Shown: piece by piece, positions 1 to 63,623 of the stretch
Layout of the letters: each line of letters starts with the position of its first letter
Numbering within the stretch: the first letter of the stretch is position 1
Assembly (NCBI GenBank): GCA_964016885.1
Contig: OZ024742.1
Coordinates: 74,648,001 to 74,712,000 of the forward strand
DNA length: 64,000 nucleotides
Direction of reading: 5' to 3'
From: Eledone cirrhosa
Lineage: Eukaryota
The notes under the pieces: generated by a model
What the model was told of the DNA's origin: nothing
The model's database searches: none
What the model saw: only the letters and a program-made list of their open reading frames with translations
Position numbers and translations under genes: made by a program

Positions 1-978
1 CGTTGAAGAATTGGTCGAGTGCCAATCTCGCCGCAAGATCGTCGGTTGCGACCTGTCCTAAACGCCTCTTCTAGCTTTCTGACTAGCTCTCCTTCTACTC
101 TATTTTCCACTATCACTAGTCCTTTGCTAAACCTAATCGACTCTACTTTAATTGCCCTTTTCAAGGCGAACAACCACTTGTTGTTGACGACCGCTCCCGT
201 CAACGCCCGCTTAACTAATACGCTAATCCGATCTCTGTAGGCTTTGCGAGCCGAGAAAGACGCGTTCAGCTTCCAGTGACCGGGTCCTTGTCTATGAAGT
301 CTGTCTATGTCAATCTCACAGATCACATATTTGTGGTCTGAGTAGTCGACTATTTTAAATTGTGGACTACTTATACTAGCCTTATCTAGTTCTCTGCAGA
401 ATACCCTATCGAGATACGATCTGGATGACCCGATGCGGTTTGTCCATGTCCACATTGGCACATTCGGGTAATCCAGTCGATACCTGTCAAACAGTTCAAA
501 ACGTCTGAGCAGGTTGGTGAGGCTCTTGCACCCTCCTCCCCTATCCACTATCTCCACACAATCCCAGCGTGCATCCAAGATACCGTTCCAGTCGCCCACT
601 AACACTAAAGAGCGAGACGTTCCAAGAAAGGTCTCTAGACGTCTGAAGAAATCTGGCCGTCCTAGCCTTCGCTGCTGGCCATGTCCAGCACCACCGACTT
701 ACCTTCTGGGTCCAGGAAGATGGCGAGATCCAAGCCTCTCCGAACCCCTCCCCCCGATCGTGGACGGCTGGGAGATGTGAATACATCGTAGCCGCCGAAG
801 ATCGGTACGAAGGCTCGTACTTCGGAGATTCTTGTCTCGCTGATGGCCACCACATCTATGTTTAGTGACCTGAGGTCGTTGAGCAGGTGGCCCTGCTTCC
901 AAGATGACCCAAGGTCACTGCATTTATACTGGCTATTCTAAGTACGGCCATGTAGGATGAGAAACGGGGCAAGTGAGA
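1..978 (-). mobile_element. Tx1-clade non-LTR retrotransposon, family C, 5'-truncated at the ORF1/ORF2 spacer; continues beyond the window start
   Basis: Minus strand encodes the APE N-terminus (MAVLRIASINA..., VAISETRISE, GDWNGILD). Sequence parallels 35170-36190. Ends directly against (AAT)33. Confidence 0.9.
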
Positions 979-1580
<602 letters not shown>

Positions 1581-2746: not shown

Positions 2747-3007
2747 AATAATAATAATAATAATGTTTTCTTTATTAACCACAAGGGTTTACATGAAGTA
2801 GACATTAAGGACAGTACAGGACAATACAGGACGGTAAAATGGGCATTTCTGCGTGTAAAAAAAACAGCGGATGAAATAAAATAACAAAGAAAAATTCCCC
2901 AGTAGGGGGGAGACTTCCGAGGGACATTTGTGGAGAAAGCCCATTAAAAGACCACAGTGGCCCTGACCACCAGGGCAAGTGCCCTCTCCCAGTTTTCCAC
3001 CTTTAAT

Positions 3008-6000
3008 TTACAGACACATACTCAGAGAAGGCCCATTCATTCGGGCCATACTTGCTTCTCTCACCCATCTTTCAACAAAATGCTGGGAAGAGAGCACTTC
3101 CCTCTCTACCCTGATTTTCCTTTTCAAATGAAATTTGAAAAAGTTAATCAGAGCATCACCGAAGAGGTAAGTGCTCGTCTTCAGCCCTTTCAAACGTGTC
3201 CACCATACTATCTCTTTCGCCATGGCCACCAGACAGATAAAAACTGCCTGCCCTTCCCGGCTAAAGGAAGGGGGCGGCGCAATCCTTACGATGGACTCAG
3301 CTGATAGCTGGATCCGTCCTACACGTGACAGCAGGTGTTCGACATAAACCCACAAGTCAGCAATGCTCGGACACTGGACGAGTGCGTGCAGGACGGTTTC
3401 GTCGCCCTGTGCGCATCTCGGACATGCCCGGCTGACGGCACCTCCATGCCTGTAAAGCATGAGATTGGCTAGTTGATTTTCGTCGACGCCTAGAGTTTCT
3501 CCAAGTACGTCGTCGCTCTTCCCCTCCACTAATCCCCTATAGAACGCCAAGGTGGAGTTTCCACCGATCACATTGCCCGATTGGTGAGACGAGCTGGTGA
3601 AAAACGTGTCTAGCAAACGGCGACCACACCTGATCACCGTCGAGGAAGAGGTGGAGATGTCGTAGCCTGAGCGCGTGTCTGCGCATCATCAGCCACGGCA
3701 TGCCCAGCCCTCCACGTAGCGGGTGTTGACAGCAGATGGACCGCCTGACCATCGGAGCGCGTCCCTTCCACAAGAAGCGAAAGAGCAAACGCTCCAGCGC
3801 AGTCAGGCGGGGCTTAGGACAAGGTACGACGGTCAGGCGGTAGTAGATGACGGACGCGATGTATGCGTTAGCCACCTCCGTTCGACCTTTCAGGGATAGC
3901 TTCCTCTCGGCCCATTTCTGTGTGAGAGAAGCCACCCTGCTCGTCACCTCGTCCCAGTTTTTGTCCGTCTGGAGGTCTGGACCGAACCAGACCCCTAGCA
4001 ATTTAACCGGTCAGTCCGTCCAGCGCCCGACGACGCTGTTGGACGGCACGGACCTGCCTCTCCAGGTGCCGAGCTGCAGGCCCACTGAATTTTCCTGGTT
4101 GATCATTGCTCCTGTCACCGCTTCGTATTCTCTTAGTGTAGTGCCGATCGCCTCGATGTGTTTGGCGTTCGACACCACTACGGTGACATCGTCGGCATAT
4201 ACTGACACGGATCTTCCGCATCCTAGTTCGCGCGGGACCCCCCTCAACGTCTCCAGTTTGTGCAGTAATGGCTCGAGAGTCAATACGTACAATAGGGACG
4301 AGAGGGGACATCCTTGGCGGACCGAGCGCATGATGTTGAACGGCTCCGAAAGGTGACCGTTCACTCTCACTACAGAGCAGATGTCGCTGTGCATGGCAGC
4401 GATCCAGCCTCTGAAGACGGGCCCAAAGCCAGCCGCCCTCAGGACTGCCGCCAGGTAACGATGGTCGACCCTATCGAAGGCTTTCGACTGATCTAAATTG
4501 ATCAAAGACCCACCCGTGCCAGGTTCCCTAGCTACCCTCTCTACGATGTATCGCATGAGGTGGAGGTTGTCGTGGATGGATCTGTCGGGAATGGCGCATG
4601 TCTGTGCCTCTCCCACCAGACCACCAACGACAAGCGCCAACCTCTTTGCTAGCACCTTGGCCAAAATCTTGAACTCTGTGTTTAGCAGAGTTATGGGCCT
4701 AAAATTATCTATGTTATCCCCCTTGTTCGGATCCTTTCTCAGCAGCGCCACCGCTCCTCGGATCACAGAGCTGGGAATTCTCCCGTTCTGTTGCCAGTTG
4801 CAGTAGACGTCCGCCAAGAGGCCTCCGAACAAGTTTGGCATTTGTACGTAAAGTTCATAGGGCAGATCATCCAAACCAGGCGATTTACCCCTTGTGCAAC
4901 TAGTCATTGCATCCCGTACTTCAGCGGTTGCTATCGGCTTTTCGCAACACTCCGCCTCAGTGGCCGAAAGCCGCGGCAGTCCGTCGAGGTAGACACTAAA
5001 GTCCATCCCTCGATCCGGCCCGCCACTGCCCCCGAACAGTTGAGCGAAGTGTCGCTGAAAAGCTTCACACATTTGCCCAGGATCGAGTAGCATGCGCCCG
5101 TCGTGGTCCACCAAAGACCGGATCGTGGCTTTGTTGCCACGACGCGCCTCCGCCACTCGGGCCCATTGAACGGCTTTCGTCCCCTCGTGTCTGAGAGCAC
5201 GCACCCTAGCTCTGACAACGCAGCCTTCGTGCTTTGCATTGAAGAATTGGTCAAGGGCCAATTTCGCCGCAAGTACGTCGGTCGCGATGCCTTTGCTAAG
5301 CGCCTCCTCTAATTTTCTAACTAATTCTCCCTCTGCTCTATTTTTCTCTATTGCTAAAGTCTTACTAAACCTAATGGACTCTATTCTAATTGCTCTTTTC
5401 AGAGCAAACCACCACTTGTTGTTGACGATGGCCCCCGTCAACGCCCGCTTAACTAGTTCGCTAATCCGGTCTCTGTAGGCTTTGCGCGCTGGTAAGGACG
5501 CGTTTAGCTTCCAGTAGCCGGGTCTTGCACCCTCCTTCCCTATCCACTAATCCCACACAATCCCAGCGTGCATCTAAGATCCCGTTCCAGTCGCCCACTA
5601 ACACTAAAGAGCGGGACGTTCCAAGAAAGGTCTCCAGACGCCGGAAGAAATCAGGCCGCCCTGCTCCTGTCGGGGCATAGACGGCCACTAACCTGAAAGC
5701 TTGGCCGTCTCCGCTGGTCACGTCCAGCAGCACCAACTTACCTTCTGGGTCCAGGAAGATGGCCCGTATGGCAAGATCCAAACCTCTCCGAAAAAGCACA
5801 GCAACTCCTCCCCCCGATCCCGGACGGCTGGGAGATTAGTACACATCGTAGCCGCCGAAGATCGGTGCGAAAGCCTGTGCTTCGGAGATTCTGGTCTCGC
5901 TGATGGCCACTACATCTATGTTTAGTGACCTGAGGTCGTTGAGCAGGTGGCCCTGCTTCCATGACGACCCCAAGCCACGCGCATTTATGCTGCCTATTCT

Positions 6001-6012
6001 GAGTGAGGTCAT
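3008..6012 (-). pseudogene. Tx1 ORF2 (APE endonuclease-RT-CCHC), disrupted
   Basis: Segments 5461..5799, 4011..5441, 3537..4001 and 3008..3637; motifs KSPGLD, FRPITLLN, LDQSKAFDRV, YADD. Confidence 0.92.
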
Positions 6013-6046
6013 GTTGAAAAGGAGTGGAAAAGATGGGAAAGACCAC

Positions 6047-8015
6047 TTACCTTACTTCTCGTAGGGGAAGGACGGTTTTTCCATCCTTTTCACTGCTTGT
6101 GGCCTCCTCAGGAAGGATGTCCTTATAAATCCTCCTGGAGAGTGCTTGTCGGAAGTCTCCGATGTCTTTGGGGAATTTTTGTTTTAGTGTCATGTACGTT
6201 TTCTGTGTGATGCGAGTGATTTGTATGTGTGGAGGTGGTGTTAATTTTGGGGTTGTTGCGTAGTCTTTTTCTGTGATGCTGGTGTTGTGTTGGATGTAGT
6301 GTAATAATTGCTTGTTGTTCAAATTTAATGCTGTGTAGTGTGTATCGTTTTGGTTGTTTTGTTTTGTTTGCGTTTGTTGTGGGTTTGTTTCTGTTTCGCA
6401 TTTTGGTGACTTTTGTGGTGTAGGTGATGGTGGTGTTGGGGTTAATGATGGTGATGGTGTTGGTGTTTGGGTTGATCGGGTTGGTGATGCTGGTATGGAT
6501 GGTGGCATATCTGTCCTAACTTTTTTGTTTCTTAATTTATTTGTTTCCCTCTGTATTTTGTTTTTGGAGGGGGAAGGAAGAGAATTTTTTCTTTTTTGGT
6601 TTCTTCTTTTTTTTCCGGATATCGTTTCCCACTCCTCGTCGTCACAATCTGTCTCCAGTTGTGATAGGCCGGGGAGTGGAAAATCCTCCACAGCCGTTAG
6701 TTTTGGTTGTGGCGTGGTGGATGGTGTAGGCGCTGGTGCTAGTTCTGAAGCGTTGGGTGGTGGTGGTGTTGGTTTTGCTGGTGGTGGTGGTGGTGTTGGT
6801 TTTGCTACTGTTGCTGGGGTTGTTGCTGTTATAGTTGCTTCTGTTGTTGCTGCTACAGTTGTTGCTGCCATCTCTGCTACTGGTGGTGTTGATGGTTGTG
6901 TCACTGGGGTGAGTAGGAAAGGTGGCCTCAACCTTTTAGCCTGAGGGCAGAAAGCCCTTAGGTGGGTTCCTTCACCACAAACGACACACCTAGGTCTTCT
7001 GCCCTCGACAATTACCGTGAGGTGGCTGCCGTCAGTGAGGTCTATTACCTCTGGGATCTCCTCAATGCTTTTTTGGTCCGCTTGGATCAGGAGCTCCATC
7101 CCAGATCCGGACCAGTTCTCCTGCTTTTCTTTTGCTATTGCTATTATTTTCGTGTTGGCTTCGATGCCGGCGAGGACAGCCGCTATTAGCCAGGGAATTT
7201 CGATGGCCGGTGGAACGTGGGTCACCCTGATCTTTACGAGTCTCTGGCCACAATAGCTTGGGACGAGTGTGAAGTCGTCACTTCTTAATGGGACCATGGA
7301 GTGTTCTCTAGCCTCCTCTGGTGTTTCAAAGAACACGTCCACGGTTCCATACTTTTGCCCACGTCTGATGTGGGTTTTTCTTGCCCACACATGTCCCAAA
7401 GCTTTTTGGATTTGGGACTCGGATGCCCGTTCCACTCGGCGCGATTTTACATTTATTGTTCTATACGACACGGTGCATAGGCGCCGATGCTCCATTTTAT
7501 TAGGTGGGGTGGAGGGGGGGGGGGAGGCTGACCCTGTACCCATCTTTCTTTACCATTTGTTTGGCATTTTCTAAATCCTCCTGAGTTACCGTAAATGCTT
7601 CGAACTGTTTTGCTACTCTGGCGAAACTGAGGGGGGTTTTTATAATGTCATTGTTGTTGTTGTTGCTATCGTTAATATTAATTTTAGTTTCAGTTGTGGT
7701 GGTGGTGACGTCAGTCGTCTTTGGTGGGGAAGAGTCCATTTTGCTTGATTTCATTTCGACATCACGAGTTAATTTATTTTTTTCTTCTTCTGTTTCTGTT
7801 GTCGCGGTGGTGGTGGTGGTGGAGGCTTTAACACCTGCAGTCATTGGTAATGGCGGGAAATGAATGTCTGCCTGAGACAAATTTAAAATATTGCTACTGC
7901 TTATACTTTTTGTAGTGTTGGCAAACGTAGTAACATTTACAATGGTGGTGTCGGTGTGAGGTGTTAATTTGTGAGAAAGGCTTTCAGCTGCTTCGTGCAG
8001 AGGTGAATTAGCCAT
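6047..8015 (-). pseudogene. Tx1 ORF1 (RRM-like region + CCHC knuckle + Pro/Thr-rich linker), split by a frameshift in a C-run near 7510
   Basis: ORFs 7500..8015 and 6047..7543; CVVCGEGTHLRAFC is C-x2-C-x4-H-x4-C. The family C homologue is continuous across this point. Confidence 0.85.
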
Positions 8016-8225
8016 TTTTTTTTCAAAGAAATTTTTTGATAATAATAAAAGTTAAAATTTTGGGCACAAGGCCCCAATCTTTTTGGATGTCCTTTTCGGA
8101 AAACAATGTATGTGCGCTTATATATGGTTAACAATAAAAATGTTCCATAAATGGCAATTTTTAACAAACGGAAATAACAAATCTTTGCGGAGCTCACGAT
8201 GATACGATTTACTACGTAGGTCGCC

Positions 8226-13176: not shown

Positions 13177-13313
13177 CTATAACAAATACCACCAACAACA
13201 ACAGCAATAATGATAATAATAATAGTTTATGATTAAGGCAATTTTTGGGAAAGGGAAAGTTGATTAAATCGAAACCAGTGCATTACCTGTACTTTATTTT
13301 CTTTTAAACACAC

Positions 13314-13468
13314 AAAAGGCCCAAATATTATAGGGAACCCTTTCTTGTGGGTAAAGACTAAAGCCTTATGTCTCTTTTAAAACAAAAATATTAACAAACG
13401 TATTTAAAACCGTAAAAATAACAAACCTACTCCAGCTCACGATAATACGTCCATTCACTTCAACAACC
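13314..13468 (-). mobile_element. Isolated Tx1-type 5' UTR fragment (apparently a fourth variant)
   Basis: Resembles the 5' UTRs at 8060-8225 and 31305-31465 (GGCCCAAATATTATA; CTCACGATAATACGTCC). Starts with GG right after an ATT run. Confidence 0.6.
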
Positions 13469-13483
13469 AATGATAATAATAAT

Positions 13484-13657
13484 TGTTTCTATTTTAGGCA
13501 CAAGGCCAGCAATTACCCAGTACATTACTGGTACTTTATTTTATCGACCCCGTAAGGATGACCCAGGCGGGATTTGAACTCAGATCATAAAGGGCCGTAA
13601 CTCTATACTGCAAAGCATGGAGTCCGACCATATACCGATACTGCCAATCCACCACCC
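13484..13657 (-). mobile_element. tRNA-derived SINE (ATT-tailed family)
   Basis: Matches 62282-62468 in reverse with a small internal deletion; AAT runs on both sides. Confidence 0.88.
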
Positions 13658-13679
13658 TCACCGTCCTCATAATAATAAT

Positions 13680-14640
13680 ATCAAATGACCCTGGCTCAAT
13701 ATCAAGAACTACCCCAGAATGGATACGAAAACAACTCTGCAACATGGATACGAAAACAACTCTGCAAAAACTAAAATAAATCGTATTGAATATCCAAATA
13801 AATGACCAAAATAAAAAAAAACTGCTATAAGGGCCTTAGTAATATTTTATATCATTTATTGCACACAAAATATGTTGTTTAAAAAAATACACCACACATG
13901 AAAATAAGGAAAACATGAGAAATACGACAAACAAAACCCATAAACTAATATTGAAGCCAATAGATACAGACCCTCCCCTCGCTCAACATTTTCTCAGGCA
14001 GAAAGAAAATATACGAGATAATATTGAAAGTTAAGCAATTAAAAACGACAAAATCTCTCTGCTTAGCGAAATAGAAAAAAAAAAACAACAAAAGAAAAAA
14101 TACAAAACAGGAACAAAATAATAATTAAATAGTATTATATGAACGAAAAAAAAAAAGAAAACAGATTGGAATGAAAAGAAAGGCCTAAGTGTATTATATC
14201 AGCAACATCATACAAGGTATAAAGGCTTCGAAAAACGTGAGCGCTTCTACCAAGAAAACCAGGTATTCAAATCAAATAGCATAAGATTTTAGAGGTAGAA
14301 TAAAAAAAATGAACAGTTGAGCATACAACAACACCAACGGAAACGGAAGGATGGGAGGGAATTTGGAGCAAAAACATTCAGTAAAACAAGGAACACAATG
14401 GATCAGAATGAAATATGATAAACTATACAACAGCATCAAAAGTATGGCCTACTATAGCCACATAGGAACCCATCAATAGTTTAAGAACTGCATGCAGTTA
14501 GAAAACCTCTGGGATTGACGAAATGTAATTTTAGGCTGAAGTACCTGACCAATATTACCAAATTAGTTGCAGCAACATAGAAAGAACTATTAATCAGAAC
14601 AAAGCCAAAACCTGATTGTCTGTCAGAGGGGAAAAGCATG
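13680..14640 (+). mobile_element. Highly degenerate R4/Dong-like remnant (region upstream of RT)
   Basis: Hand translation gives FYQENQVFKSN, WEGIWS, KTSGIDE, LKYLT and PDCLSEGK, paralleling FWRGIW, KSPGPDG, IKHLT and PEWLTKG of 23138..25504. Follows an AAT run. Confidence 0.6.
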
Positions 14641-17164: not shown

Positions 17165-20100
17165 TTTCTTTATTAACCACAAGGGTTTACATAAAGTAGA
17201 CATTAAGGACAGTGCTGGACAATGCAGGACGGTACAAATGGGCATTTCTGCGTGTAAAAAACAAAAACAGAGGATGTAACAAAAATAACAATGAAAATAA
17301 CAATGAAAAATTCCCCAATAGGGGGGAGACTTCGGAGGGACATTTGTGGAGAAAGCCCAGTAAAAGGCCACAGTGACCCTGACCACCAAGGCAAGTGCCT
17401 TCTCCCAGTTTTCCACCTTTAATTTACAGACACATACTCATAGTAGGCCCATTCACTCGGGCCATTCCTGCTTCTCTCACCCATCTTTCAACAAAATGCT
17501 GGGAAGAGAGCACTTCCCTCTCTACTCTGATTTTCCTTTTCAAATGAAATTTGAAAAAGTCAATCAGGGCATCACCGAAGAGGTAAGTGCTCGTCTTCAG
17601 CCCTTTCAAACGTGTCCACCATACTATCTCTTTTGCCATGGCCACCAGACAGATAAAAACTGCCTGCCCTTCCCGGCTAAAGGAAGAGGGCGGGGCAATC
17701 CTCACGATGGACTCAGATGATAGCCGGATCCGTCCTACATGCGACAGCAGGTGTTCGAAATAAACCCACAAGTCAGCAATTTTCGGACACTAGACGAGTG
17801 CGTGCAGGACGGTTTCGTCGCCCTGCGCACATCTCGGACATGTCCGGCTGACGGCACCTCCATGCCTGTAGAGTTTATCCCGAACTGGCAAGGCTCCTCG
17901 GTAGCACTGCCAGGCCAGGGATTTCTGGAAGTTGTCCATAGGTCCCGGCCCGAAAGTTCTTCCGAAGAGATTGGCTAGTTGATTTTCGTCGACGTCTAGA
18001 GTTTCACCAAGTACGTCGTCGCTCTTCCCCTCCACTAATCCTCTATAGAACGCCGACCTGGAGTTTCCAACGATCACATTGCCCGATTGGTCGAGGGCTG
18101 TGAGCGCCTGAAGACATTCCAGTCTACAGGCGCTCCCTCTCGGTCTTCGCTTGACACCGGACTGCAGCTCCGTCAAGGAAACGAGCTGGGGAAATACGTG
18201 TCTAGCAAACGGCGACCACACCTGATCACCGTCGAGGAAGAGGTGGAGATGTCGTAGTCTGAGCGCGTGTCTGCACATCATCAGCCAAGGCGTGTCCAGC
18301 CCTCCACGTAACGGGTGTTGACAGCAGATGCACCGCCTGACCATCGGAGCGCGTCCCTTCCACAAAAAGCGAAAGAGCAAACGCTGAAGCGCTGTCAGGC
18401 GGGGCTTAGGACAAGGTACGACGGTCAGGCGGTAGTAGATGACGGACGCGATGTACGCGTTAGCCACCTCCGCTCGACCTTTCAGGGATGGTTTCCTCTC
18501 CGCCCATTTCTGGGTGAGAGAAGCCACCCTGCTCGTCACCTCGTCCCAGTTTTTGTCCGTCTGGAGGTCGGGACCGAACCAGACCCCTAGCAATTTAACC
18601 GGTCCGTCCGTCCAGCGCCCGACGACGCTGTTGGACAGCATGGACCTGCCTCTCCAGGTGCCGAGCTGCAGGCCCACTGACTTTTCCTGGTTGATCATTG
18701 CTCCTGTCACCGCTTCGTATTCTCTTAGTGTAGTGTCGATCGCCTCGATGTGTTTGGCGTTCGACACCACTACTGTGACATCGTCCGCATATGCTGACAC
18801 GGATATTCCTCATCCTAATTCGCGCGGGACCCCCCTCAACGTCTCCAGTTTGTGCAGTAATGACTCGAGAGTCAATACGTACAAGAGGGACGAGAGGGGA
18901 CATCCTTGGCAGACCGAGCGCATGATGTTGAACGGTTCCGAAAGGTGACCGTTCACTCTCACCACAGAGCAGATGTCGCTGTGCATGGCAGCGATCCAGC
19001 CTCTGAAGACGGGCCCAAAGCCAGCCGCCCTCAGGACTGCCGCTAGGTAACGATGGTCGACCCTATCGAAAGCTTTCGACTGATCTAAATTGATCAAGGA
19101 CCCTCCCGTGCCAGGTTCCCTAGCTACCCTCTCTACGATGTATCGCATGAGGTGGAGGTTGTCGTGGATGGATCTGTCGAGAATGGCGCATGTCTGCGAC
19201 TGTCCCACCAGACCACCAACGACTAGCGCCAACCCCTTTGCTAGCACCTTGGCCAAAATCTTGAACTCTGTGTTTAGCAGATTTATGGGCCTAAAATTAT
19301 CTGTTATCCCCCTTGTTCGGATCCTTTCTCAGCAGCGCCACTGCTCCTCGGCTCACAGAGCTGGGAATTCTTCCGATCTGTTGCCAGTTGCAGTAGACGT
19401 CCGCCAAGAGGCCTCCGAACAAGTAAAGTTCATAGGGCAGACCATCCAAACCAGGCGATTTACCCCTTGTGCAGCCAGTCATTGCCTCCCGTACTTCAGC
19501 GGCTGTTATCGGCTTTTCGCAACACTCCGCCTCAGTGGCAGAGAGCCGCGGCAGTCCGTCGAGGTAGACACTAAAGTCCATCCCTCGATCCGGCCCGCCG
19601 CTGCCCCCGTACAGTTGAGCGAAGTGCCGCTGAAAAGCTTCACACATTTGCCCGGGACCGAGTAGCATGCGCCCGTCGTGGTCCACCAAAGACCGGATCG
19701 TGGCTTTGTTGCCACGACGCGCCTCCGCCACTCGACGCATTGAACGGCTTTCGTCCCCTCGTGTCTGAGAGCACGCACCCTAGCTCAGACAACGCAGCCT
19801 TCGTGCTTTGCATTGAAGAATTGGTCAAGGGCCAATTTCGCCGCAAGTACGTCGGTCGCGATGCCTTTGCTAAGCGCCTCGTCTAATTTTCTAACTAATT
19901 CTCCCTCTGCTCTATTTTTCTCTATTGCTAAAGCCCTACTAAACCTAATGGACTCTATTCTAATTGCTCTTTTCAGACCAAACCACCACTTGTTGTTGAC
20001 GATGGCCCCCGTCAACGCCCGCTTAACTAGTTCGCTAATCCGGTCTCTGTAGGCCTTGCGCGCTGGTAAGGACGCGTTTAGCTTCCAGTAGCCGGGTCCT

Positions 20101-23049
20101 CGTCTATGAAGCCTATCTAAGTCAAGCACACAGATCACTAATTTGTGGTCCGTGTAGCTGACTATCTTGAATTGTGGACAGCCTATGCAAGACCAATCTA
20201 TTTCCCTACAAAATACTCTATCTAGATATGATCTGGATGACCCTATGCGATTTGTCCAAGTCCACATTGGCACATTCGAGAAATCCAATCGGTACCTGTC
20301 AGACAGTTCAAAACGCCTGAGCAGGTTGGTGAGACTCTTGCACCCTCCTCCCCTATCCACTAATCCCACACAGTCCCAGCGCGCATCTAAGATCCCGTTC
20401 CAGTCGCCCACTAACACTAAAGAGCGGGACGTTCCAAGAAAAGTCTCCAGACGCCGGAAGAAATCAGGCCGCCCTGCACCTGTCGAGACATAGACGGCCA
20501 CTAGCCTGAAAGCTTGCCTGTCTCCGCTGGTCACGTCCAGCAGCACCAACTTACCTTCTGGGTCCAGGAAGATGGCCCGTATGGCAAGATCCAAACCTCT
20601 CTGAAAAAGCACAGCAACTCCACCCCCGATCCTGGACGGCTGGGAGATGTGTACACATCGTAGCCGCCGGAGATCGGTGCGAAGGCTCTTGCTTCGGAGA
20701 TTCTGGTCTCGTTGATGGCCACTACATCTATGTTTAGTGACCTGAGGTCGTTGAGCAGGTGGCCCTGCTTCCTTGACGACCCCAAGCCACGCGCATTTAT
20801 GCTGCCTATTCTGAGTGAGGTCATGTTGAAATGGAGTGGAAAAGATGGGAAAGACCACTTACCTTACTTCTCGTAGAAGAAGGACGGTTTCTCCATCCTT
20901 TTCAATACTTGTGGCCTCCTCAGGAAGGATGTCCTTATAAATCCTCCTGGAGAGTGCTTGTCGGAAGTCTCCGATGACTTTGGGGAATTTTTGTTTTAGT
21001 GTCATATACGTTTTCTGTGTGATGCGAGTGATTTGTATGTGTGGAGGTGGTGTGAACTTTTGGGTTGTTGTGTAGTCTTTTTCTGTGATGCTGGTGTTGT
21101 GTTGGATGTACTGTAATAATTGGTTGTTGTTCAAATTTAATGCTGTGTAGTGTGTATCGTTTTGGTTGTTTTGTTTTGTTTGTGTTTGTTTTGGGTTTGT
21201 TTCTGTTTCGCTTTTTGGTGACTTTTGTGGTGTAGGTGATGGTGGTGTTGGGGTTAATGATGGTGATGGTGTTGGTGTTTAGGGTGATGGGGTTGGTGAT
21301 GCTGGTGTGGATGGTGGCATATCTGTCCTAACTTTTTTGTTTGATAGTTTATTTGTTTCCCTCTGTATTTTGTTTTTGGAGGGGGAAGGAAGAGAATTTT
21401 TTCTCTTTTGGTTTCTTTTTTCTTTTTTCCTGATACCGTTTCCCACTCCTCGTCGTCACAATTTGTCTCCAGTTGTGATAGGCCGAGGAGTGGAAAATCC
21501 TCCACGGGCGTTAATTTTGGTTGTGGCGTGGTGGATGGTGTAGGCGCTGGTGCTAGTTCTGAAGCGTTGGGTGGTGGTGGTGTTGCTTTTGCTACTGTTG
21601 CTGGGGTTGTTGCTGTTATAGTTGCTTCTGTTGTTGCTGCTACAGTTGTTGCTGCCATCTTTGCTGGTGGTGGTGTTGATGGTTGAGTCACTGGGGTGGG
21701 TAGGAGAGGTGGCCTCAACCTTTTAGCCTGAGGGTAGAAAGCCATTAGGTGGGTTCCTTCACCCCAAACGACACACCTAGGCCTTCTACCCTCGACAATT
21801 ACGGTGAGGTGGCTGCCGTCAGTGAGGTCTATTACTTCTGGGATCTCCTCAATACTTTTTTGGTCCGCTTGGATCAGGAGCTCCATCCCAGATCCGGACC
21901 AGTTCTCCTGCTTTTCTTTCGCTATTGCTATTATCTTGGTGTTGGCTTCGATGCCGGCGAGGACGGCAGCTATTAGCCACGGAATTTCGATGGCCGGTGA
22001 AACGTGGGTCACCCTGATCTTTACGAGTCTCTGGCCACAATAGCTTGGGACGAGTGTGAAGTGGTTACATCTTAATGGGGCCATGGAGTGTTCTCTAGCC
22101 TCCTCTGGTGTTTCAAAGAACACGTCCACGGTTCCATACTTCTGCCCACGTCTGATGTGGGTTTTTCTTGCCCACACATGTCCCAAAGCTTTTTGGATTT
22201 GGGACTCAGATGCCCGTTCCACTCGGCGCGATTTTACATTAATTGTTCGAAAATACACGGTGCATAGGCGCCAATGCTGCATTTTATTAGATGGGGGTTG
22301 GGGGTTGGGAGTGGGGGGTGATGCTGACCCTGTACCCATCTTTCTTTACCAATATTTTGGCTTCTTCTAATTCCTCCTGAGTTACCTGAAATGCTTCGCC
22401 CTGTTTTGCTACTCTGGCAAAACTCAGGGTAGTTTTCTTAATGTCATTGTTGCTGTTGTTGTTATCGTTATTTTTGTTATTATTAATTTTAGTTTCAGTT
22501 GTGGTGGTGGTGGCGTCAGTGGTGTTCGGTGTGAAAGAGTTCATTTTGGTTGAATTCATTTCGACATCACGAGTTAATTTATTTTTTTCTTTTGTTTCTG
22601 TTGTCGCGGTGGTGGTGGGGGTGGTGGTTGTCGCGGTGGTGGTGGTGGCGGCGGCTTTAACACCTGCAATCATTGGTAATGGCGGGAAATGAATGTGTGC
22701 AGAGACAAATTTAAAATATTGCTACTGCTTAAATTTTTAGTGTTGGCAAACGTAGTAATATTTACAATGGTGGTGTCGGTGTGAGGTGTTAGTTTGTGAC
22801 GAAGGCTCTCAGTTGCTTGATGCAGAGGTGAATCAGCCATGAGTTTTTCAAAGAAATTTTTTGATAATCATAAAAGTTTAAATTTTGGGCACAAGGCCCC
22901 AATCTTTTTGGGTGCCCTTTTCGGAAAACAATGTATGTGTGCTTATATACAGTTAACAATAAAAATTTTCTATAAATGGCAATTTTAACAAACGGAAACA
23001 ACAAACCTTTGCGGAGCTCACGATGATACGATTTACTACGTAGGTCGCC
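17163..23049 (-). mobile_element. Tx1 family A, copy A2 (full length, frameshifted)
   Basis: Same termini as A1. ORF2 ATG at 20824, stop at 17424. Preceded by (AAT)10 at 17133-17162 and followed by (AAT)22 at 23050-23115. Confidence 0.95.
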
Positions 23050-23118
<69 letters not shown>

Positions 23119-23120
<2 letters not shown>

Positions 23121-25578: not shown

Positions 25579-25608
25579 AATAACAACAATAATAATAATA
25601 ATAATAAT

Positions 25609-28600
25609 GATTTCACTTATTGGCCACAAGGGCCGACATATAGGGGACAATACAAAAGACTGGGACAGTGGGGTTTTACAGAAAAACCGAGTAAACAATA
25701 TGAATCTCAATAACAAAATAACAATAACAAAGTAACAATAAAGTAACAATAAAATTACAACAAGAAAAAAATTCCCCAATAGGGGAGATGACCACCTAGG
25801 GTTCGGTCAGGTACCCCACCAGTCCTGAACGACCCGACGCTTCGAGAGCACCCTGGAAGGGCATCCCTCTCCTCCTCAAATTTACCTACCTACAGCCGCA
25901 TGACCAGAGTAGGCCCACTCACACGGGCCATTCTACCCACATTCAGCCACCTTTCAGCAAATGTACTGGGAGGGGGGGAAGCACTTCTCTCTCCACCCTC
26001 ACCTTCCTTTCCAAGTGAAACTTGAAAAAGTTGATGAGGGATTGGCCGAAGAGAAAAGTGTCTGTCTTCAGTCCTTTCAGTCTCGTCCACCATGCGTAGC
26101 TTTCGCTACTGCCACCAGACAGAGAAAAAATTGCCTGCCCTTCCTGGCCAAAAGAAGGCGGCGGATCGATCTTCACTATGGACTCGGCCGATAGCCGGAT
26201 CCGTTCTACACGCGACAACAGCTGTTCAACATAACTCCACAAGTCAGTAATGCACGGACACTGGACGAGTGCGCGCAGAACGTTTTCGTCGCTCTGCGCG
26301 CATCTCGGGCAGGTCCGTCTGACAGCACTTCCGTGTCTGTAGAGTTTATCTCGAATCGGCAGTGCCCCCCGGTAGCACTGCCAAACGAGGGATTTTTGGA
26401 AATTATCCATCGTCCACGGCTCGAAAGTCCTCCGGTACAGACTGGTTAGTTCGACTTCATTGACTCCCAGAGCCTCTCCGAGTGCGTCGTCGCACCCTCC
26501 CACCACTAATCTTCTATAGAACTCGAGAGTGGAAGTTCCACTGACCGCATTGCTCGTCTCGTAGATGGCAGTGAGTGCCTGGCAACATTCCAGATGCCAG
26601 TCACCCAGTTTCGGTCTCTTCTTGACCCAGGACTGCAGCTCAGTCAAAGAAACGAGCTGCGGAAAGGCCCGTCTGACAAACCGCGACCACACCTGTTCAC
26701 CGTTTAGGCAGAATATCTGGAGATGCCGCAGCCTCAGCGCGTGCCTGTGCATCATTAGCCACGGCATGCCCAGCCCTCCACGTAGAGGGTGCTGGCAGCA
26801 GATGGAGCGCCTCACCAGCGGAACCTGACCCATCCACAAGAATTTGAAGAGGAGCGCTCCAAGATGGCGAGGCGCGAACGGGGGCAAAGGACGACAGTCA
26901 GACGGTAGTAGATGACGGACGCGATGTACGCGTTCGCCACCTCGCCCGACCTTTCAGTGATAGCTTCATCCCAGCCCATTTCTGGGTAAGACTGGCTACC
27001 CTGCCTGTCACCTCGTCCCAATTCTTATCCACCTGGAGGTCTGGCCCGAACCAAACCCCTAGCAACTTTACCGGTCAGTCCGTCCCGCGCCTAACGACGC
27101 TGTTGGACGGCATGGACTTGTCTCTCCAGGTGCCGAGTTGCAAGCCCACTGACTTTTCCGGGTTAAGTTTTGCTCCCGTCAACCTTTCATATTCCTCCAA
27201 TAAGTTGCCGACCACGTCGATTTCTAAGGTGTCCGACACCATCACGGTGATGTCGTCCGCATAAGCCGACACAGCCTTTCCGCGTCCCGGTTCGAGCGGG
27301 ATGCCCTGCAACAGCTCCAGCTTCCGCGATAAAGGCTCGAGAGTCAATACGTACAGAAGGGAGGAGAGAGGGCACCCTTGACGGACCGATCGGGAGACCT
27401 GAAACGGTTCCGAGAGGTGGCCATTAATTTTGACCATCGAGCAGGTGCCGCTGTGCATTGCAGCAATCTAGCTTCTGAAGACGGGGCCGAAGCCAGCCGC
27501 CTTGAGGACAGCCTCCAGGTATCGATGGTCGACCCTATCGAATGCTTTCGATTGATCAAAATTGATCAGAGCCCCACCGAAGTCAGGTTTATACCCTACC
27601 CTCTCTATGATGTATCGCATTAGGTGGAGGTTGTCGTGTATGGACCTGGTTGGGATTGCGCAAGTTTGCGCCTCCCGACGACAAGCGCCAACCACTTCGC
27701 TAACGCCCTGGCCAAAATCTTAAACTCTGTGTTGGGCAGAGTTATGGGCCTGAAATTGTCTAATGTGTCCCTCTTGTTCTCGTCTTTCATTATCAGCGTC
27801 ACTACGCCCCGGCTCACAGAACTGGGAATACTCCCGTTTTGCTGCCAGTTGCAGTAGAGGGCTTCGAGGAGATTGGAGAACAAGTCTGGCATATTTACGT
27901 AAAGCTCGTAGGGCAGACCATCCAAACCGGGTGACTTGCGCCTCATGCAGCTGACAAGGGCATCCTGAATCTCGGCTGAAGTAATTGGCCTTTCGCAGCG
28001 CCCAGCGTCAGCCGTCAAGAGTTGCGGCAAGCCATCAAGGTAGGGACGAAGTACGCCACCATCTCTGACCTGCCACTCCCCTTGAACAACCGAGCAAAAT
28101 GTTGGCGAAAGGCCTCACACATCCTCTTGGAATCGCTCAGCTCGTTCCCGTCTCGGTCCGTCAAAGACAGAATCGTGGTTTTATTACCACGCTGCGCCTC
28201 TGCCACGCGGGCCCATCAAACAGCTTTGGTTCCCTCGTTTCTCAGAGCACGCGCCTTAGCTCGACAATGCAACCTTCGTGTTTCGCATTGAAGAAATGGT
28301 CTAATGCCATTCTCGCCGCTAGCACATCAGTTGCAATGCTACTACCAATAGCCTCGTCTAACTTATCTACCAACTCCCCCTCCTTTCTATTTTTCACTAA
28401 CGCTACTTCTTTGCTAAACTCTATCGACATTACTCTAATCTCTCTTTTGAGATCCCCCACCATCTATTGTTGACGACTCCCCCTGTCAACTTTTTCTTAA
28501 CTAAATTGTTGACCTGGTCCCTGTAAGCCTTACGTGCCGGAAATGACATGTTTAGCTTCCAGTAACCAGGTCCTAACCTACGCGTCTTATCTAGGTCGAC

Positions 28601-31465
28601 CATACAGATCACAAACTTGTGGACAGCTTACACTATTTCTGTCTATTTTTCTAATGAATATCCTATCTATATACGATCTAGATGACCCTATGCGGTTAGC
28701 CCAGGCCCACACTGGCGCATTAGGGAAATCTAGTCGGTACCTGTCAGACAGTTGGAACTGGTGATCAGGTTCTTGAGGTTTTTGCACCCCCCGCTCCTAT
28801 CGGATACTCCCAGCGTGCGTCTAAGATGCCGTTCCAGTCCCCCGCTAACAGTAAAGGGCGAGACGTACCCAGAAAGGCTTCCAGGCGTCTAAAGAAGTCC
28901 GGCCGTCCTTCCCCAGTAGGAGCATAGACGCCCACCAGTCTAAAGGCACCACCTTCGTTATTGTTCACGTCCAGGACCACCAACTTCCCGTCCGGGTCCC
29001 GGAAGATCGACCTTACCTCGACATCCAGGCCTTTCCTAAACAGCACTGCCACCCCGCCTCCCATTCTCGGTCGGGAAAGATCTGATAGTCGTCGAAAATG
29101 GGGGCTAGTGCGCGCGTGTCGGAAATCTTGGTCTCGCTGACTGCAATTACACCCATTTCTATAGACCTGAGGTCGTTGTGCAGGTGACCCTGTTCCAGGA
29201 CGATCCCAGGCCTCGAACATTTAAACATCCTACTCTTAATACGGCCATGTTGGCAGGTTAAACAGAGAGAGAGGAAGGTTTACTTACCTTCTGGTCTCTT
29301 GTGAAGGTCGGGTTGTTCGACCTCCATAGTTAGTGGGGTTTCTTTTGGGAACCCCTTTAAAAGTCTTGAAGTGGGTTTTACGTTAGGGGTTCCCACGTCC
29401 CGAGGAAAGTTGTCTCGTATTTCTTTGAATATGTCGAGCGACATTCGCACCAGAACCAAATCTTCCGGCACGGGAAATGTGCTCGATTTAAAAATTTCCC
29501 CCTCTTTTTGTATATTTTCACTTCGTGCTACGAGGGCCATCAGTTCCTTGTTGGCCCTCCTGACGCGCACGAAGTTTTGTATGTTTTGTTGGTGTGATTT
29601 TATTTGTTTGCGTGGCTGTGGTGGTGATGGTTTTGGTGGTGTTGTTTCGGTTGTATCTGTGTTTGTTGTGAGTGCGATGTCTGTGGTTTCAGATGTTTGT
29701 GTGTATATTTGTTCTTGCGTCTGTTTCGGTTGTTTGCGTTTGGGGGATGCTGGTGATGGTGATGGTGCTGTTGATGTTGGTGTTATTGGAGAGATGTTTG
29801 CGTGGGTGGTCTCTGCGTTTTTTATTGTGGGTGCTTTTGTGCTTTGTTGAGTTTTTTTTTCTTTTTGTGTTTCCTTTTTTGTATTTTGGGGGATTTTGGA
29901 TTTTCCTCATCTTCACCACTGGTAGATGAGGGGTCTGTGTCTGTAAGTGTGTTTGTATGTATGTTTAAGGTTTTAATGGTGTGTGTATTTTTGCGGGGAG
30001 CGGGAATTTGACAGCTTTCCTGGTTTCCCCCCTGGGTGGTCAATGTTGGTGGTGGTCTTTCGATTGGTGTTGTTGTTGGTGGTTTTGCCGGTGCTGGTGT
30101 TGGTTGTGGTCCTCGCCCCGGCGTCGGCAGCAGTGGAGCCTTTCGACCCCTTGCCTCTTTCAGCAGTTGAGGGCAGAAGGCTTGCAAATGGGTTTTTTCC
30201 CCACAAACAAAACACTGCGGCCTTTTGCCTTCGGTCAAAATGTGAATGACCGTCCCATTCTGAAGGCGGATGTGGTCCGGGATTGTCTTCACATTCTCGA
30301 GCCTGATCTGGAGAAGGATCTCCAGGTCAACTCTGGACCAGTCCTCTCTGGTCGTTCTGGTCACTTCTATAGGGACTGTATCCTTCCCCTCCACAGTCAC
30401 ACATCCCAGAAGCCACCACATGTCAAGTCCTGGTGGAATTCTGGGAATGCGGAGACGGGCCGTTCTTTTTCCCATGTGGGAGGGGGTACATTAAGACCTT
30501 GCTGGTTTTGCAAGGAGTCATAGCGTGTTTCATAGCGAGGGCTTCTGACTTGAACAACACCGAAATGGTGCCGTACTGTCTGCCCCTCTCTATGTACTGG
30601 GTGTCTTCTCTGATGCACCTCAGCACGACTTCGACATCTTCTTGTGGGATTAAAGCTGCCCTTTTGGTTTGTGCTGAGATGCATCTATAATGCACCGTTT
30701 TGCGCTCCACTACTTCAATAGCTTCTACCGAGACAGTTAAGTTGGCCCAGGTTTTTTCTTCCTTGATGTGCTTCCATGCCTGGGCTAACTTTTCATCTTT
30801 GTTTTAGGGTTCCATGTTGAAGCATGGCTTCTTTTTTGCTGCTGCAGCAGCGAAAGTGTTTTTGTTGTTTTCGTTGGGGGTGTTGTTGTCGTTGTTCTTG
30901 TTGGTGTTGTTGTTAGCACTGTCGCTGTTATCATTGTTGTCTTTGTTGCCACCGTTGTTCTCGGTGCAGTTGGTATTGTTGCTGTTGGTGTTGTCGCTAT
31001 TTGTTATCATGTTAGTGGTGTTGATATTGTTGTTGCATTTGTTATCTTTTTTTTTGTTATCTGTATTTTCGTTGTTGCTGTTACTGTCATTTTTTTCAAA
31101 ATTAGAGTTCTCATTGTTATCATTGGTGTCTTTGTTTACCTTGTTTGTGGTGGTGTTTGTATTATCAATGTGTGTTAATTTCGCTGTAGCGCTCCTCTCA
31201 ACTTCTACGTCGTTGTCGCACGACAGCCGACATATCGCTGGGGGGCGTGGCTCAGCCATGTTTTTTTTTTCTTCGTAAATTTTTTAACATATAAAAAAAG
31301 TTCAAATATTTGGGCCAAAAGGCCCAAATATTATACTTTCCCCTTCACGGGGCAAAGTCTAAGGGCTTATATCCCTTACCCAACAAGAAATATTTAACAA
31401 CAAATAATTTTAACAGGCAAATAAAGCGACTTACTGTGAGCGAGCAAAATACGTCCGCTTAGACC
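25609..31465 (-). mobile_element. Tx1 family B, full length, degenerate
   Basis: 5' end (ATT)n-GGTCTAAG. ORF1 pieces at 31259-29280 with an Asn-rich N-terminus and CFVCGEKTHLQAFC. ORF2 ATG at 29248, YADD in 27075..27458, stop at 25890. Confidence 0.92.
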
Positions 31466-31489
31466 AATAATAATAATCATAATAATAAT

Positions 31490-32492: not shown

Positions 32493-32510
32493 AATAATAA
32501 TAATAAGAAT

Positions 32511-35500: not shown

Positions 35501-36610
35501 ACTTTAAATTGTGGATAACCTACACTAGCCTTATCTGTTTCGCTACAGAATACCCTATCTAAATACGATCTGAATGACCCGATGCGGTTTTCCCATGTTC
35601 ACATTGGCACATTCGGATAATCCAGTGTATACCTGTCAGACAGTTCAAAACGTTTGAGTAGGTTGTTGAGGCTTTTACACCCTCCTGCCCCGTCTACTAG
35701 CCCCACATAATTCCAGCGTGTATCTAAGATACCGTTCCAGTCGCCCACTAACATTAAAGAGCGGGACGTTCCAAGAAAGGTCTCTAGACGTCTGAAGAAA
35801 TCTGACCGTCCTGCTCCTGTTGGGGCGTAGACGGCTACTAGCCTGAAAGCATTGCCTTCACTGCCGGTCACGTCCAGCACCACCGACTTACATTCTGGGA
35901 CCAGGAAGATGTCCCGTATGGCGAGATCCAAGCCTCTCCGAAAAAGCACAGCAACTCTTCCTCCCGATCCTGGACGGCTGGGAGATGCGTATACATCGTA
36001 GCCACGGAAGATAGGTGCGAAGGCTCGTGCTTCGGAGATTCTGGTCTCGCTGATGGCCACCACATCTATGTTTAGTGACCTGAGGTCATTGAACAGGTGA
36101 CTCTGCTTCCAAGATGACCCCAGGCCACGTACATTTATACTGCCTATTCTAAATACGGCCATGTTGGATGAGGAATGGAGTAAGTGAGAAAGGATCACTT
36201 ACCTTGATCGTGTGGGGAAGGGACAGCAGAACCATCCCTTCGGCTGGTCATGGGTGTCTCCAAGACGATATCTTTATAGATTCTCTTGGAGCGTGACCCC
36301 CTGAAATTGTTGCTGTTGGGTGAATGTGTGCTTTGTTGTGTTTGCGATGTTGGTGTTTTTGATAATGTTGGTGGTGGTGTGGTTGTTGTTGGTGGTGATG
36401 CTTGTGGTGGTGATGGTGGTGGTGTTGCTGCAAGTCCCCTTGCAGTATTTATCCTTCTTTCTTTGCCTTCGCTTTTGGACGGAGAAACTGTAGTGTTTTT
36501 GCGTTTGTTCTTTTTGTTGAGAACCGTTTTCCACTCCTCAGCCGCCTCATACTCCATGTCCGACAGTGAGAGGTCGGGGAGGGGTATGAGTTCTACCCTC
36601 TCATTTGTCC

Positions 36611-43580: not shown

Positions 43581-43581
43581 A

Positions 43582-61396: not shown

Positions 61397-63623
61397 ATGA
61401 GAAAGTATAACTAATACCCTGCCACCGACCTCTCACACTCGGACATGAAGTATGAGGCGGCTGAGGAGTGGAAAACGGTCTGCAAGAAAACCAAATGGAA
61501 AAACACTACAGCTTCCCCCTCCAAAAGCGAGGACAAAGAAAGAGGGCTAAAGGCTGCAAGGCAACTTGCAGCAACACCACCACCATCACCATCACGACCA
61601 TAAGCATCACCACCAACAACCACACCACCACCACCACCAGCATCATCACAAGCATAAACATCGCAGACACAACAAAGCACACACACCCAACAGCAACAAG
61701 AAGAAAACAGCAACAAAACAAAGCCCCCCCCCCCCCCCCCCGAAAAAAAAATGACACACCCATAAATATTGCAAACAACGGATTAATGGAACATATAAAG
61801 CAGCACACAGACATTACAGACAAAAATTACCCCACCAACACTAACATTACCAAAAAATATAAACATTGTCGAAATTAAACTGGAACACTCTTCGGGTGCT
61901 TTTGTGCTAGCATGTGTAGTGTACATATTGATATTATACGCAAATATACATGCATGTAGATACGATACATCAAATAAAATAGTAATTAACAATATGCACA
62001 GAAATTGAACGAAGTCTGTGTTACACTGTCTTCTGTAATCAGTAAAGTAATCTATGATACATTAAAGAAAGACGATATTATATATAAACTGCATTAAGAG
62101 AGAATTAGCGACGGAAATATATGCGATGTTTTTATAAGTGTTATAAATATAACCGGAAGTGTTGACTTTGAAAATTTTAAAGCAGTGAATCTTTAGATAA
62201 ACAATAAAATATATTTAATCAAGAGTTACAAAATTTAGTACATAAATTATGTAATATTCGTTCATTATTTATTCAACGTAAAAGGGCGGTGGATTGGCAG
62301 TATCGGTAGAGGGTCGGACGCCATGCTTTCCAGCATAGTTACGTCCCTTTACGATCTGAGTTCAAATCCCGCCGAGGTTGACTTTGCCTTTCATCCTTAC
62401 GGGGTCGATAAAATAAAGTACCAGTAATGCACTGGGTAATTGCTGGCCTTGTGCCTAAAGTAGAAACAATTATTTATTCAACGTAATCCAAGTTATTTTA
62501 CAAACGGGGTAAAAAAATATATTCTGAACGCAGTCCCGCACTCCTTTCTTTATTGTAGTTAAGATTTAAAACAAAAATATCCCAACTCCATTGGGTATTT
62601 CAGGGGGTCACTCACCAAGAGAATATACACAGATATCATCTTGGAGACGGTTCGACTGTTCCTTCCCCACACGATCAAGGTAAGTGATCCTTTCTCACTC
62701 ACCCGTTCCTCACCCAGCATGGCTGTACTTAGAATAGGCAGTGTAAATGTACGTGGCCTGGGGTCATCTTGGAAGCAGGTCCACCTGTTTAACGACCTCA
62801 GGTCACTAAACATAGATGTGGTGGCCATCAGCGAGACCAGAATCTCCGAAGCACGAGCCTTCGCACCGATCTTCGGTGGCTAAGATGTATACGCATCTTC
62901 CAGCCGTCCGGAAGCGGAGGGGGGGGGGAGCGGAGTTGCTGTGCTTATTCCGAGAAGCTTGGATCTCGCCATACGGGTCATCTTCCTGGACCAAGAACGT
63001 AAGTCGGTGGTGCTGGACGTGACTGGCAGTGAAGGCAATGCTTTCAGGCTAGTAGCCGTTTACGCCCCAACAGGGGCAAGACAGCCAGATTTCTTCAGAG
63101 GTCTAGAGACTTTTCTTGGAACGTCCCGCTCTTTAGTGTGAGTGGGTGACTGGAACGGTATCTTAGATGCACGCTGGGATTATGTGGGGCTAGTAGACAG
63201 ATGAAGAGGGTGTAAAAACCTCAACAACCTGCTCAGACATTTTGAACTTTCTGACAGGTATAGACTGGATTATCCGAATGTGCCAATGGGGACATGGGCA
63301 AACCGCATCGAGTCATCCAGATCGTATATAAATTGGATATTCTGTAGTGAAACAGACAAGGTTAGTTTAGGTTGTCCTCATTTTAAAGTAGTCGACTACA
63401 CGGGCCACAAATTTGTGATCTGTGAAGTTGACTTAGATAGACTCCATAGGCAAGGGCCCGGTTACTGGAGCTGAACGCGTTCCGGCGCGCGAAGCTTACA
63501 GAGACCGGATTAGCCAATTAGTTAAGCGTGCGTTGACGGGTGCGATCGTCAACAACATGTGGCGGTTTACCCTGAAAAGGACAATTAGAGTAGAATCGAT
63601 AAGGTTTAGCAAAGTGGTAGTGA
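59884..63623 (+). mobile_element. Tx1 family C copy, 3'-truncated, interrupted by an insertion at about 61890-62558
   Basis: Reverse-complement homologue of 35280-38158. Begins after an ATT run that is the tail of a SINE fragment (59806-59853). ORF2 ATG at 62719. Confidence 0.9.
62282..62468 (+). mobile_element. Full-length ATT-family tRNA-derived SINE with 18-bp TSD
   Basis: A box TGGCAGTATCGG, B box GAGTTCAAATCC; ATTATTTATTCAACGTAA at 62264-62281 and 62469-62486. Confidence 0.93.

Follow-up and report, generated by a model that had tools for sequence, protein, structure and literature searches.

A nine-nucleotide sequence that reads as a perfect 5' splice site, AAGGTAAGT (AAG|GTAAGT), sits on the stop codon of ORF1 at all five ORF1/ORF2 junctions of the LINE retrotransposons in the window, by which is meant the whole stretch of 64,000 nucleotides of Eledone cirrhosa DNA analyzed here. 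The consensus of the U2-type 5' splice site is MAG|GTRAGT, complementary to U1, and the motif at the ORF1 end is taken here to be that U1-complementary consensus. Sequence comparison indicates that this donor is a real, selected feature, a variant of a known strategy whose function is predicted. Very probably, it is a U1-type site maintained by selection.

The window is eukaryotic, repeat-rich DNA. Its five non-LTR ORF1/ORF2 junctions fall into three families (A, B and C) of (ATT)n-tailed LINEs of the L1/Tx1 type. Copy A1 (about 2770..8224, reverse strand) runs from an (ATT)n 5' flank to an AATAAA-(ATT)n tail; its ORF2 carries endonuclease, reverse transcriptase (RT) and zf-RVT regions, with internal deletions, and its ORF1 (6047..8014, reverse strand) holds an RRM-like region and a CCHC knuckle, with a frameshift near 7500-7550. 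Copy A2 (about 17165-23050), family B (about 25575-31465) and copy C1 (about 32500-38170) lie on the same strand; copy C2 (about 59860-63623, broken at about 61700-62596) lies on the forward strand. Further truncated pieces are D, E and a fragment at 31874-32098. The five donor sites represent, of course, only three families, as A1 and A2 are 92-95% identical and C1 and C2 about 79-86%.

These elements are non-LTR retrotransposons of the L1/Tx1 group, with an APE/RT/zinc-motif ORF2 and a separate RRM/CCHC ORF1; the Tx1-clade label is to be read against an RT tree that holds unnamed relatives and no named Tx1 reference elements. The Pfam models PF03372 (APE endonuclease), PF00078 (RT) and PF13966 (zf-RVT) match the ORF2 frames, whose zinc-binding motif is C-terminal. 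The best PDB match of the ORF2 RT is human L1 ORF2p (E 6e-23), with R2 behind. ORF1 has no Pfam match, and its CX2CX4HX4C knuckle can be read in protein P0001; its Atlas features, which offer a lead only, fall in zf-CCHC and ZCCHC3-type RBD clusters at 0.90-0.93. A protein of Argonauta hians nests in the window RT clade (64% identity; support 100/99).

The elements prefer (ATT)n as a target sequence, a Tx1-clade feature. By eye, (ATT)n stands at the 3' end of A1, A2, B, C1, E and the fragment 31874-32098, and before the 5' end of A1, A2, B, C2, D and E (flanks at 8224, 23050, 31465 and 59860). The 3' ends carry AATAAA (AATAAG in B), followed by (ATT)n within about 7 nt. All families insert into (ATT)n, often in the tails of a SINE that ends GGCCTTGTGCC..AGAAAC (window positions 2770, 17165, 25575, 31900, 32500 and 1080). 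In this, they resemble the Tx1 elements Kibi and Koshi, two-ORF APE-type LINEs found at the simple repeats (TC)n and (TTC)n, respectively. They differ in their target, (ATT)n, often within SINE tails; the accessible text of that report mentions neither (ATT)n nor a donor motif (PMC4494074).

The initial annotation had placed the motif at five positions, and all five hold, on the strands given. In A1, the donor consensus occupies 6045..6053 (reverse strand), with its GT at 6050-6049 and the ORF1 stop TAA at 6049-6047, inside the motif itself. It is followed by a pyrimidine-rich spacer of 32 nt that ends CAAC (6013..6044, reverse strand) and by the ORF2 ATG (6010..6012, reverse strand), where the APE endonuclease begins (MTSLRIGSINARGL). 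In A2, the motif lies on the ORF1 stop at 20857..20865 (reverse strand), with the ORF2 ATG at 20824. In B, it lies at 29282..29290 (reverse strand), the stop TAA ending at 29280 and the ATG standing at 29248; in C1, at 36197..36205 (reverse strand), the stop TGA ending at 36195 and the ATG at 36162; and in C2, at 62677..62685 (forward strand), with the ATG at 62719. The motif is thereby 32, 32, 33, 34 and 33 nt from the ORF2 ATG in A1, A2, B, C1 and C2. All spacers are pyrimidine-rich, and end CAAC except in C2 (CAGC), as had been described.

The same nine nucleotides are read differently in each family, again as first reported: V-R-TAA in A, (E)-G-K-TAA in B and (Q)-G-K-TGA in C. The 40 nt upstream of the motif share 16-22 identities over 40-42 columns between families, a background level, as an unrelated family gives 17-18; the inter-ORF spacers share 16-23 of 33-34. 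The annotation's remark that the surrounding ORF1 is not conserved is therefore right for the nucleotides only; the ORF1 C-termini are homologous as proteins, with FP.D(I/V)G common to A and B and RIY(K/T)DI to A and C.

Exact copies of AAGGTAAGT also occur inside the ORF2 endonuclease, at 5736..5744 (reverse strand), 20549-20557 and 697-705, three places missing from an earlier list that was otherwise correct for the junctions. There, the motif spells D-P-E-G-K codons, with one mismatch in C and no counterpart in B; these internal copies are likely driven by coding. Sense-strand matches of 9/9 make the ORF1-end site unique in B, C1 and two M elements (L001 and L058; family M is described below), and one of two in A1, A2 and a third (M_L019). 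The ORF1-end match is itself 9/9 in A1, A2, B, C1 and the three scored M elements, and C2 has the same 9-mer. On the antisense strand, no 9/9 donor match was seen in any of the eight in-group elements. Over the whole window, the motif with one mismatch occurs 26 times against 19.2 expected, which is not significant; thus, it is the position of the motif that matters. Local shuffles that preserve dinucleotides place a full MAG|GTRAGT within the central 25 nt 3 times in 5000 for A, 4 times for B and never for C.

Three families in one window might, of course, share a motif simply by inheritance or chance. The more telling evidence comes from an independent lineage. When a profile of the complete ORF2 was run against prokaryotic genome records, host-derived LINE arrays turned up in one public metagenome-assembled genome (MAG; G001), here called family M (L001-L038); the same scan returned more distant L1-type elements from other MAGs (L039-L056). 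This nominally bacterial MAG holds many contigs of head-to-tail arrays (L001-L038 and L057-L059), with a period of 6.4-6.8 kb and mostly intact LINEs. The contigs are host contamination, and their arrays are reminiscent of telomeric or other site-specific retrotransposon clusters.

The RT of M is 50% identical to that of A, 49% to B and 47% to C, and its ORF1 is 23-39% identical to the window families in the RRM/knuckle region. Nevertheless, ORF1 ends GAG TAA G|GTAAGT in 58 of 58 unique copies (40 loci). Those 58 are the ends caught by an anchor, in a genome that holds 69 endonuclease matches, including three of a further family, N, and fragments. Here, the motif is non-coding, just past the stop, and the ORF2 ATG follows it by just 7 nt, rather than 32-34 nt. 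Relative to the ORF1 stop, the donor lies between -7 and +2 nt in all of A, B, C and M. The "fixed distance" from ORF2 in the initial annotation is, accordingly, a property of the window families and does not extend to M.

When 900 nt of the M junction are compared with the window by blastn, the top matches are 14/14 on the motif itself (6056-6043 and 20868-20855); no longer alignment outscores them, and the surrounding DNA does not align. At E 0.58 each, it is the place of these matches and not their score that carries weight. Among 29 M junction haplotypes, positions -3..+6, the span of the donor consensus, are invariant, while +7, +8 and +11 vary. The haplotypes are 83-100% identical and represent one lineage, so the deep comparison rests on two lineages.

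That the motif is inherited neutrally, or recurs by chance among a few related families, is the least probable of the readings weighed here, and is largely refuted. The window does have three families only, and within M the invariant run of nine columns is a weak argument, variation being seen in 52 of 132 columns of one flank and 30 of 147 of the other. Against this reading stand flanks no more alike than background, a motif that is non-coding in M and identical between lineages at about 50% RT identity, and shuffles that produce the site in 0-4 of 5000 cases. A motif that is kept whether or not it codes, and in whichever of three phases it falls, points to purifying selection on the RNA sequence. 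The claim of constraint at the nucleotide level on the 5' splice-site consensus is thereby strongly supported by an independent lineage: M has the same 9-mer, non-coding, in 58 of 58 copies within DNA that cannot be aligned.

The constraint is not universal. Family N (L057), from the same MAG as M, has an RT 56% identical to that of M and 51% to that of A. Its ORF1/ORF2 junction is a TAATG stop-start overlap, and its ORF1 end lacks a consensus donor. N stands nearer to M than any window family does, and so a close relative can do without the site. The branching among the window clade, M and N is not settled in the RT tree; the site was therefore either lost in N or gained twice. Further out, none of ten outgroup LINEs has a site of at least 8/9 within -12..+55 nt of the ORF1 stop (the best is 7/9). 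The extension of the motif to "all Tx1 families" thus holds for the three window families and M, and fails for N and the ten outgroup LINEs.

Other searches for close relatives returned zero, in metagenome contigs, viral contigs, genome contigs (with an endonuclease profile) and 48 further genomes of the family to which G001 belongs. Five other MAGs were searched; four gave distant L1-type matches only, the fifth none. A search for ORF1 homologs matched 0 of 689 candidates. One protein (P0027) reads through a spacer as Q-G-E...M, and is possibly a GTGAG variant.

Several other features of these elements and their surroundings were seen. A motif CCCC..GGGGRATTTTT stands in the 3' UTRs of A, B, C and M, which otherwise cannot be aligned (about 2890-2905, 25720-25740, 32660-32680 and L001:9840-9860); it is possibly a recognition element for ORF2p. 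The sequence GGCCTTGTGCC occurs in the 5' leaders of A (8060-8075, reverse strand) and M (L001:10135-10150), as well as at the tail of the local SINE, and the similar CCCTTGTGG stands before the polyA signal. A SINE-like repeat of about 200 nt, in tandem and with (ATT)n tails, lies at 31316-32530, 13313-13680, 57100-57322 and 62283-62475, with no tRNA or Rfam match at default thresholds. An open frame of 825 codons (23027-25504, forward strand), antisense between A2 and B, encodes an RT of another LINE clade (about 29% identical to the Tx1-type RT). The region 42229-48722 holds a tandem duplication around an N gap (45805-46004), with internally palindromic units of 160-200 nt, and may be partly an assembly artefact.

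What might a donor do at the end of ORF1? A motif that stands between the ORF1 stop and the ORF2 ATG could be a cytoplasmic signal for termination and reinitiation, or could bind ORF1p or some other protein, and match the donor consensus by coincidence. There is precedent, as the ORF2 proteins of SART1 and L1 are made by reinitiation (PMC5972666), and in N a TAATG stop-start overlap takes the place of the motif. The likeness to SART1, L1 and the calicivirus TURBS lies in having a signal at the ORF1/ORF2 boundary, together with the UAAUG overlap of N; the difference from TURBS is that neither a conserved UGGGA nor a common structure is found, and a donor consensus stands there instead (PMC5972666). 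The TURBS core TGGGA is absent at the A, B and C junctions; it is present in some M copies only, downstream of the stop, and other copies have TCGGA, TTGGA or TGAGA in its place. Nor does the motif keep a constant distance from the ATG (7 vs 32-34 nt). No fold is common to the families around the donor. Predicted folds do pair the donor in several families, but among 14 sites the pairing beat shuffled flanks for M_L007 and M_L019 only (4 and 0 of 300 shuffles), and the fold energy for C1, M_L019 and M_L023 only (2, 5 and 11 of 300).

A second observation bears on the same question, for a similar site stands past the stop of ORF2, where there is nothing to reinitiate. In M, GTRAGT lies about 15 nt past the usual position of the ORF2 stop in 45 of 45 copies (L001:9472-9500), as GTGAGT in 20 and GTAAGT in 25. 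This switching is the variation that a splice consensus allows. In one M subfamily, ORF2 runs on and ends at a TAA within GTAAGT, as ORF1 does in A. In N, CAG|GTAAGT stands 41 nt past the ORF2 stop, followed by CTAAT and a long pyrimidine tract ending TTAG. Measured from the ORF2 stop, the second consensus site of M and N ranges from 3 nt before it to 41 nt after it. B has a weaker donor-like TAG|GTAGGT (7/9) on its ORF2 stop (25884..25892, reverse strand), and A and C have only 6/9 sites after ORF2. Altogether, a role in translation is unlikely, and the coupling of ORF1 termination to ORF2 initiation, one of the three functions first proposed, is weakened both by the spacing and by the site after ORF2.

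Viewed on its own, the segment of N (L057:16092-16280) looks like a textbook 3'-UTR intron, a candidate of about 145 nt complete with donor, CTAAT, pyrimidine tract and TTAG. An AAG|GTGGGT near the end of ORF2 was set aside as R-W-V coding.

The pyrimidine tract of the spacer invites another reading, in which a mini-intron of 52-59 nt runs from the GT to an AG in the first codons of ORF2, and yields an ORF1-ORF2 fusion protein in the window families. Inspection by hand does find an in-frame AG in A (the first AG) and in B and C (a TAG two codons on). However, with one AG for each of phases 1 and 2 in every family, such a fit is guaranteed. Further, the M stop precedes the donor, so that no fusion is possible there, and ORF2 retains an ATG of its own in a CAAC context. 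A fusion by this route is very unlikely, a little less so than neutrality.

The cut itself would fall in phase 2 in A, in phase 1 in B and C, and past the stop in M. Because these phases differ, a downstream exon would add no required protein. A splice to any acceptor beyond the start of ORF2 removes the ORF2 ATG, and its product would, in turn, be ORF1-only. Sites that track stops, tolerate A or G at +3 and ignore phase look, from their sequence, like donors placed to keep the upstream ORF whole.

The explanation preferred here is that the donor is used in part. U1 snRNP would bind the 9-mer at the ORF1 end, and splicing would join an intact ORF1 to a downstream non-coding exon, whose acceptor would lie in the 3' UTR or in flanking DNA. 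The unspliced RNA would serve as genome and as template for ORF2. The likely gain would be ORF1p in excess over ORF2p. By analogy with retrotransposons of another class, a part-used donor of this kind, with an ORF1-only RNA beside the unspliced one, has a probability that we would put somewhat below even; it is the best fit among the three functions first proposed, and is qualified by acceptor and retrocopy searches described below. In the NMD rule, 50-55 nt is the limit between a stop and a downstream junction. The donor sites at the ORF1 and ORF2 stops, all within 50 nt of a stop, would fit this rule, whose strength in molluscs may differ.

The analogy is to LTR elements. Drosophila copia makes a spliced gag RNA. 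In Arabidopsis, the Ty1/Copia element EVD makes two RNAs, a dominant unspliced one and a spliced, GAG-only one (shGAG), and its donor-bound U1 also blocks premature termination (PMC5580714). As the U1 site of EVD also guards the full-length RNA, splicing and protective roles may coexist. The excess of ORF1p predicted here would be the counterpart of what shGAG RNA provides. In both cases the donor lies near the end of the structural ORF, here at the end of ORF1; if splicing occurs here, the spliced RNA would carry the structural protein only, the unspliced RNA would be the genome, and U1 may both splice and protect (PMC5580714). The differences are no less clear. As an LTR element, EVD has a single GAG-POL frame; these are two-ORF non-LTR LINEs, which may work as EVD does but are not members of its class. 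The intron of EVD is short and has been mapped, and a premature polyA site follows it closely (PMC5580714). No conserved acceptor was found in the LINEs, and ORF2 has no AATAAA or ATTAAA in five of six elements when canonical signals are scored.

Human L1 RNA, also of the L1 group, contains splice donors and gives rise to SpIREs; splicing from these donors either stays inside the 5' UTR or leads out of it into ORF1, and yields truncated or deleted RNAs, whereas the donor here is at the ORF1 end (PMC5860796). The 63-nt inter-ORF spacer of human L1 holds two stops, and the accessible text of that report names no donor in it (PMC5860796).

The preferred explanation calls, of course, for an acceptor. 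When the 3' UTRs of A, B, C, M and N were scored, no acceptor conserved across the families was found. A U-rich tract with CAG in the A 3' UTR (2848..2877, reverse strand; first base past the AG at 2848, or 17247 in A2) is an acceptor-like candidate without a counterpart in B or C. By rank, the 3'-UTR candidates come out on top in A and among the top three in M and N; B and C1 have none. Their scores are weakly above shuffles in A2, M_L001 and M_L019 (23, 20 and 17 of 500 shuffles score as high), and not above them in A1 (116), M_L007 (84), N (223), B (461) and C1 (443). A recursive site, in which the AAG before the GT would act as an acceptor and yield an RNA for ORF2 alone, was set aside, as inspection of M by eye shows no pyrimidine tract ahead of the AAG.

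Nor are spliced retrocopies seen. All 58 M ORF1 ends and all five window junctions continue with GTAAGT, although tandem arrays may expand at the DNA level. A 237-nt deletion in A1 was considered as a spliced copy and dismissed, having no GT..AG ends. Copy D (2..980, reverse strand), which is C-like and 5'-truncated within the spacer, adjoins (ATT)n directly; this one copy starts about 12 nt past the GT position, as predicted for an RT stopped at bound U1. For assembled contigs from four of six runs of unspecified kind, none of the 15 joints listed on A2, with 1755 more joints and 4307 loose ends beyond that list, falls at the donor (20862/20863); contigs cannot show absence, and this comparison is given no weight as evidence. 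A step in contig depth from ORF2 to ORF1 on A2 is confounded by other families. Rfam and ARAGORN give no match in the window, and Rfam none in three M loci.

The lack of a conserved acceptor, and of any spliced retrocopy among 63 junctions, makes a close rival of the view that U1 binds without splicing. There, U1 would retain some full-length RNA on chromatin or elsewhere in the nucleus, help elongation along, or weaken the formation of 3' ends; the site after ORF2 would damp the element's own polyA signal and let transcription run on into (ATT)n or the following unit of a tandem array. This would account for both absences. It would also suit the donor-like sites near the 5' end: ACA|GTAAGT in B (31429..31437, reverse strand), some 30 nt in from the 5' end, CCC|GTAAGT near the 5' end of C2 (59914-59922, forward strand), both within the general pattern of GTAAGT about 30-40 nt from the 5' end, and GTAAGT in the 5' leader of some M copies; A, M_L007 and N have none. 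In human cells, an unspliced 5' splice-site motif blocks export and disturbs 3' processing (PMC4380460), and in EVD U1 suppresses termination (PMC5580714). As in that nuclear-retention system, the donor here would be an unspliced consensus in an intronless RNA; there, however, the motif is under-represented in intronless mRNAs and at the starts of terminal exons (PMC4380460), while here it is kept in such places.

Three considerations weigh on the other side. Between the ORF1 and ORF2 stops there is no canonical polyA signal to guard in five of six elements (one occurs in B), and the initial annotation's suggestion that U1 suppresses premature polyadenylation lacks a canonical target there. 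Binding alone has no need to track a stop codon to within a few nucleotides. Finally, protection by introns from HUSH worked without a 5' splice site (PMC8770142). Binding without splicing is, on this evidence, a serious though doubtful possibility, in which U1 may act by retaining the RNA in the nucleus or by weakening the polyA site of the element itself.

Splicing and binding might be parts of one programme. A lineage of (ATT)n LINEs might work in the manner of a retrovirus, with alternative donors pinned to stops giving ORF1-only and ORF1+ORF2 mRNAs, and with nuclear retention and retrotransposition reserved for the RNA that is unspliced and marked by U1; N would then have exchanged a lost ORF1 donor for its TAATG overlap. 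So broad a scheme is tentative, and further from an even chance than the part-used donor alone.

No report was found of a conserved donor on the ORF1 stop of a LINE, in a search largely outside subscription journals, Repbase entries and supplements, where a mention in a family description is possible. The accessible text of one related report has no occurrence of "splic" (10.1101/788562).

What such a site would mean is easily stated, even with its function predicted. The persistence of a perfect donor at the ORF1 stop, between LINEs about 50% identical in RT, implies that some LINEs would recruit the spliceosome on purpose. LINE RNAs are, after all, treated as intronless. The site bears on how LINEs set a high ratio of ORF1p to ORF2p, and on how they divide their RNA between translation and use as a genome. 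Both questions become testable through a site of nine nucleotides, in which a single base can be changed and U1 altered to compensate. Moreover, wherever these abundant elements land, their strong donor behind an intact ORF1 would seed ORF1-host chimeric exons, much as in the known case of the L1 ORF1 exon spliced into MYL4 (Lyosin) (10.1101/2024.04.25.591049).
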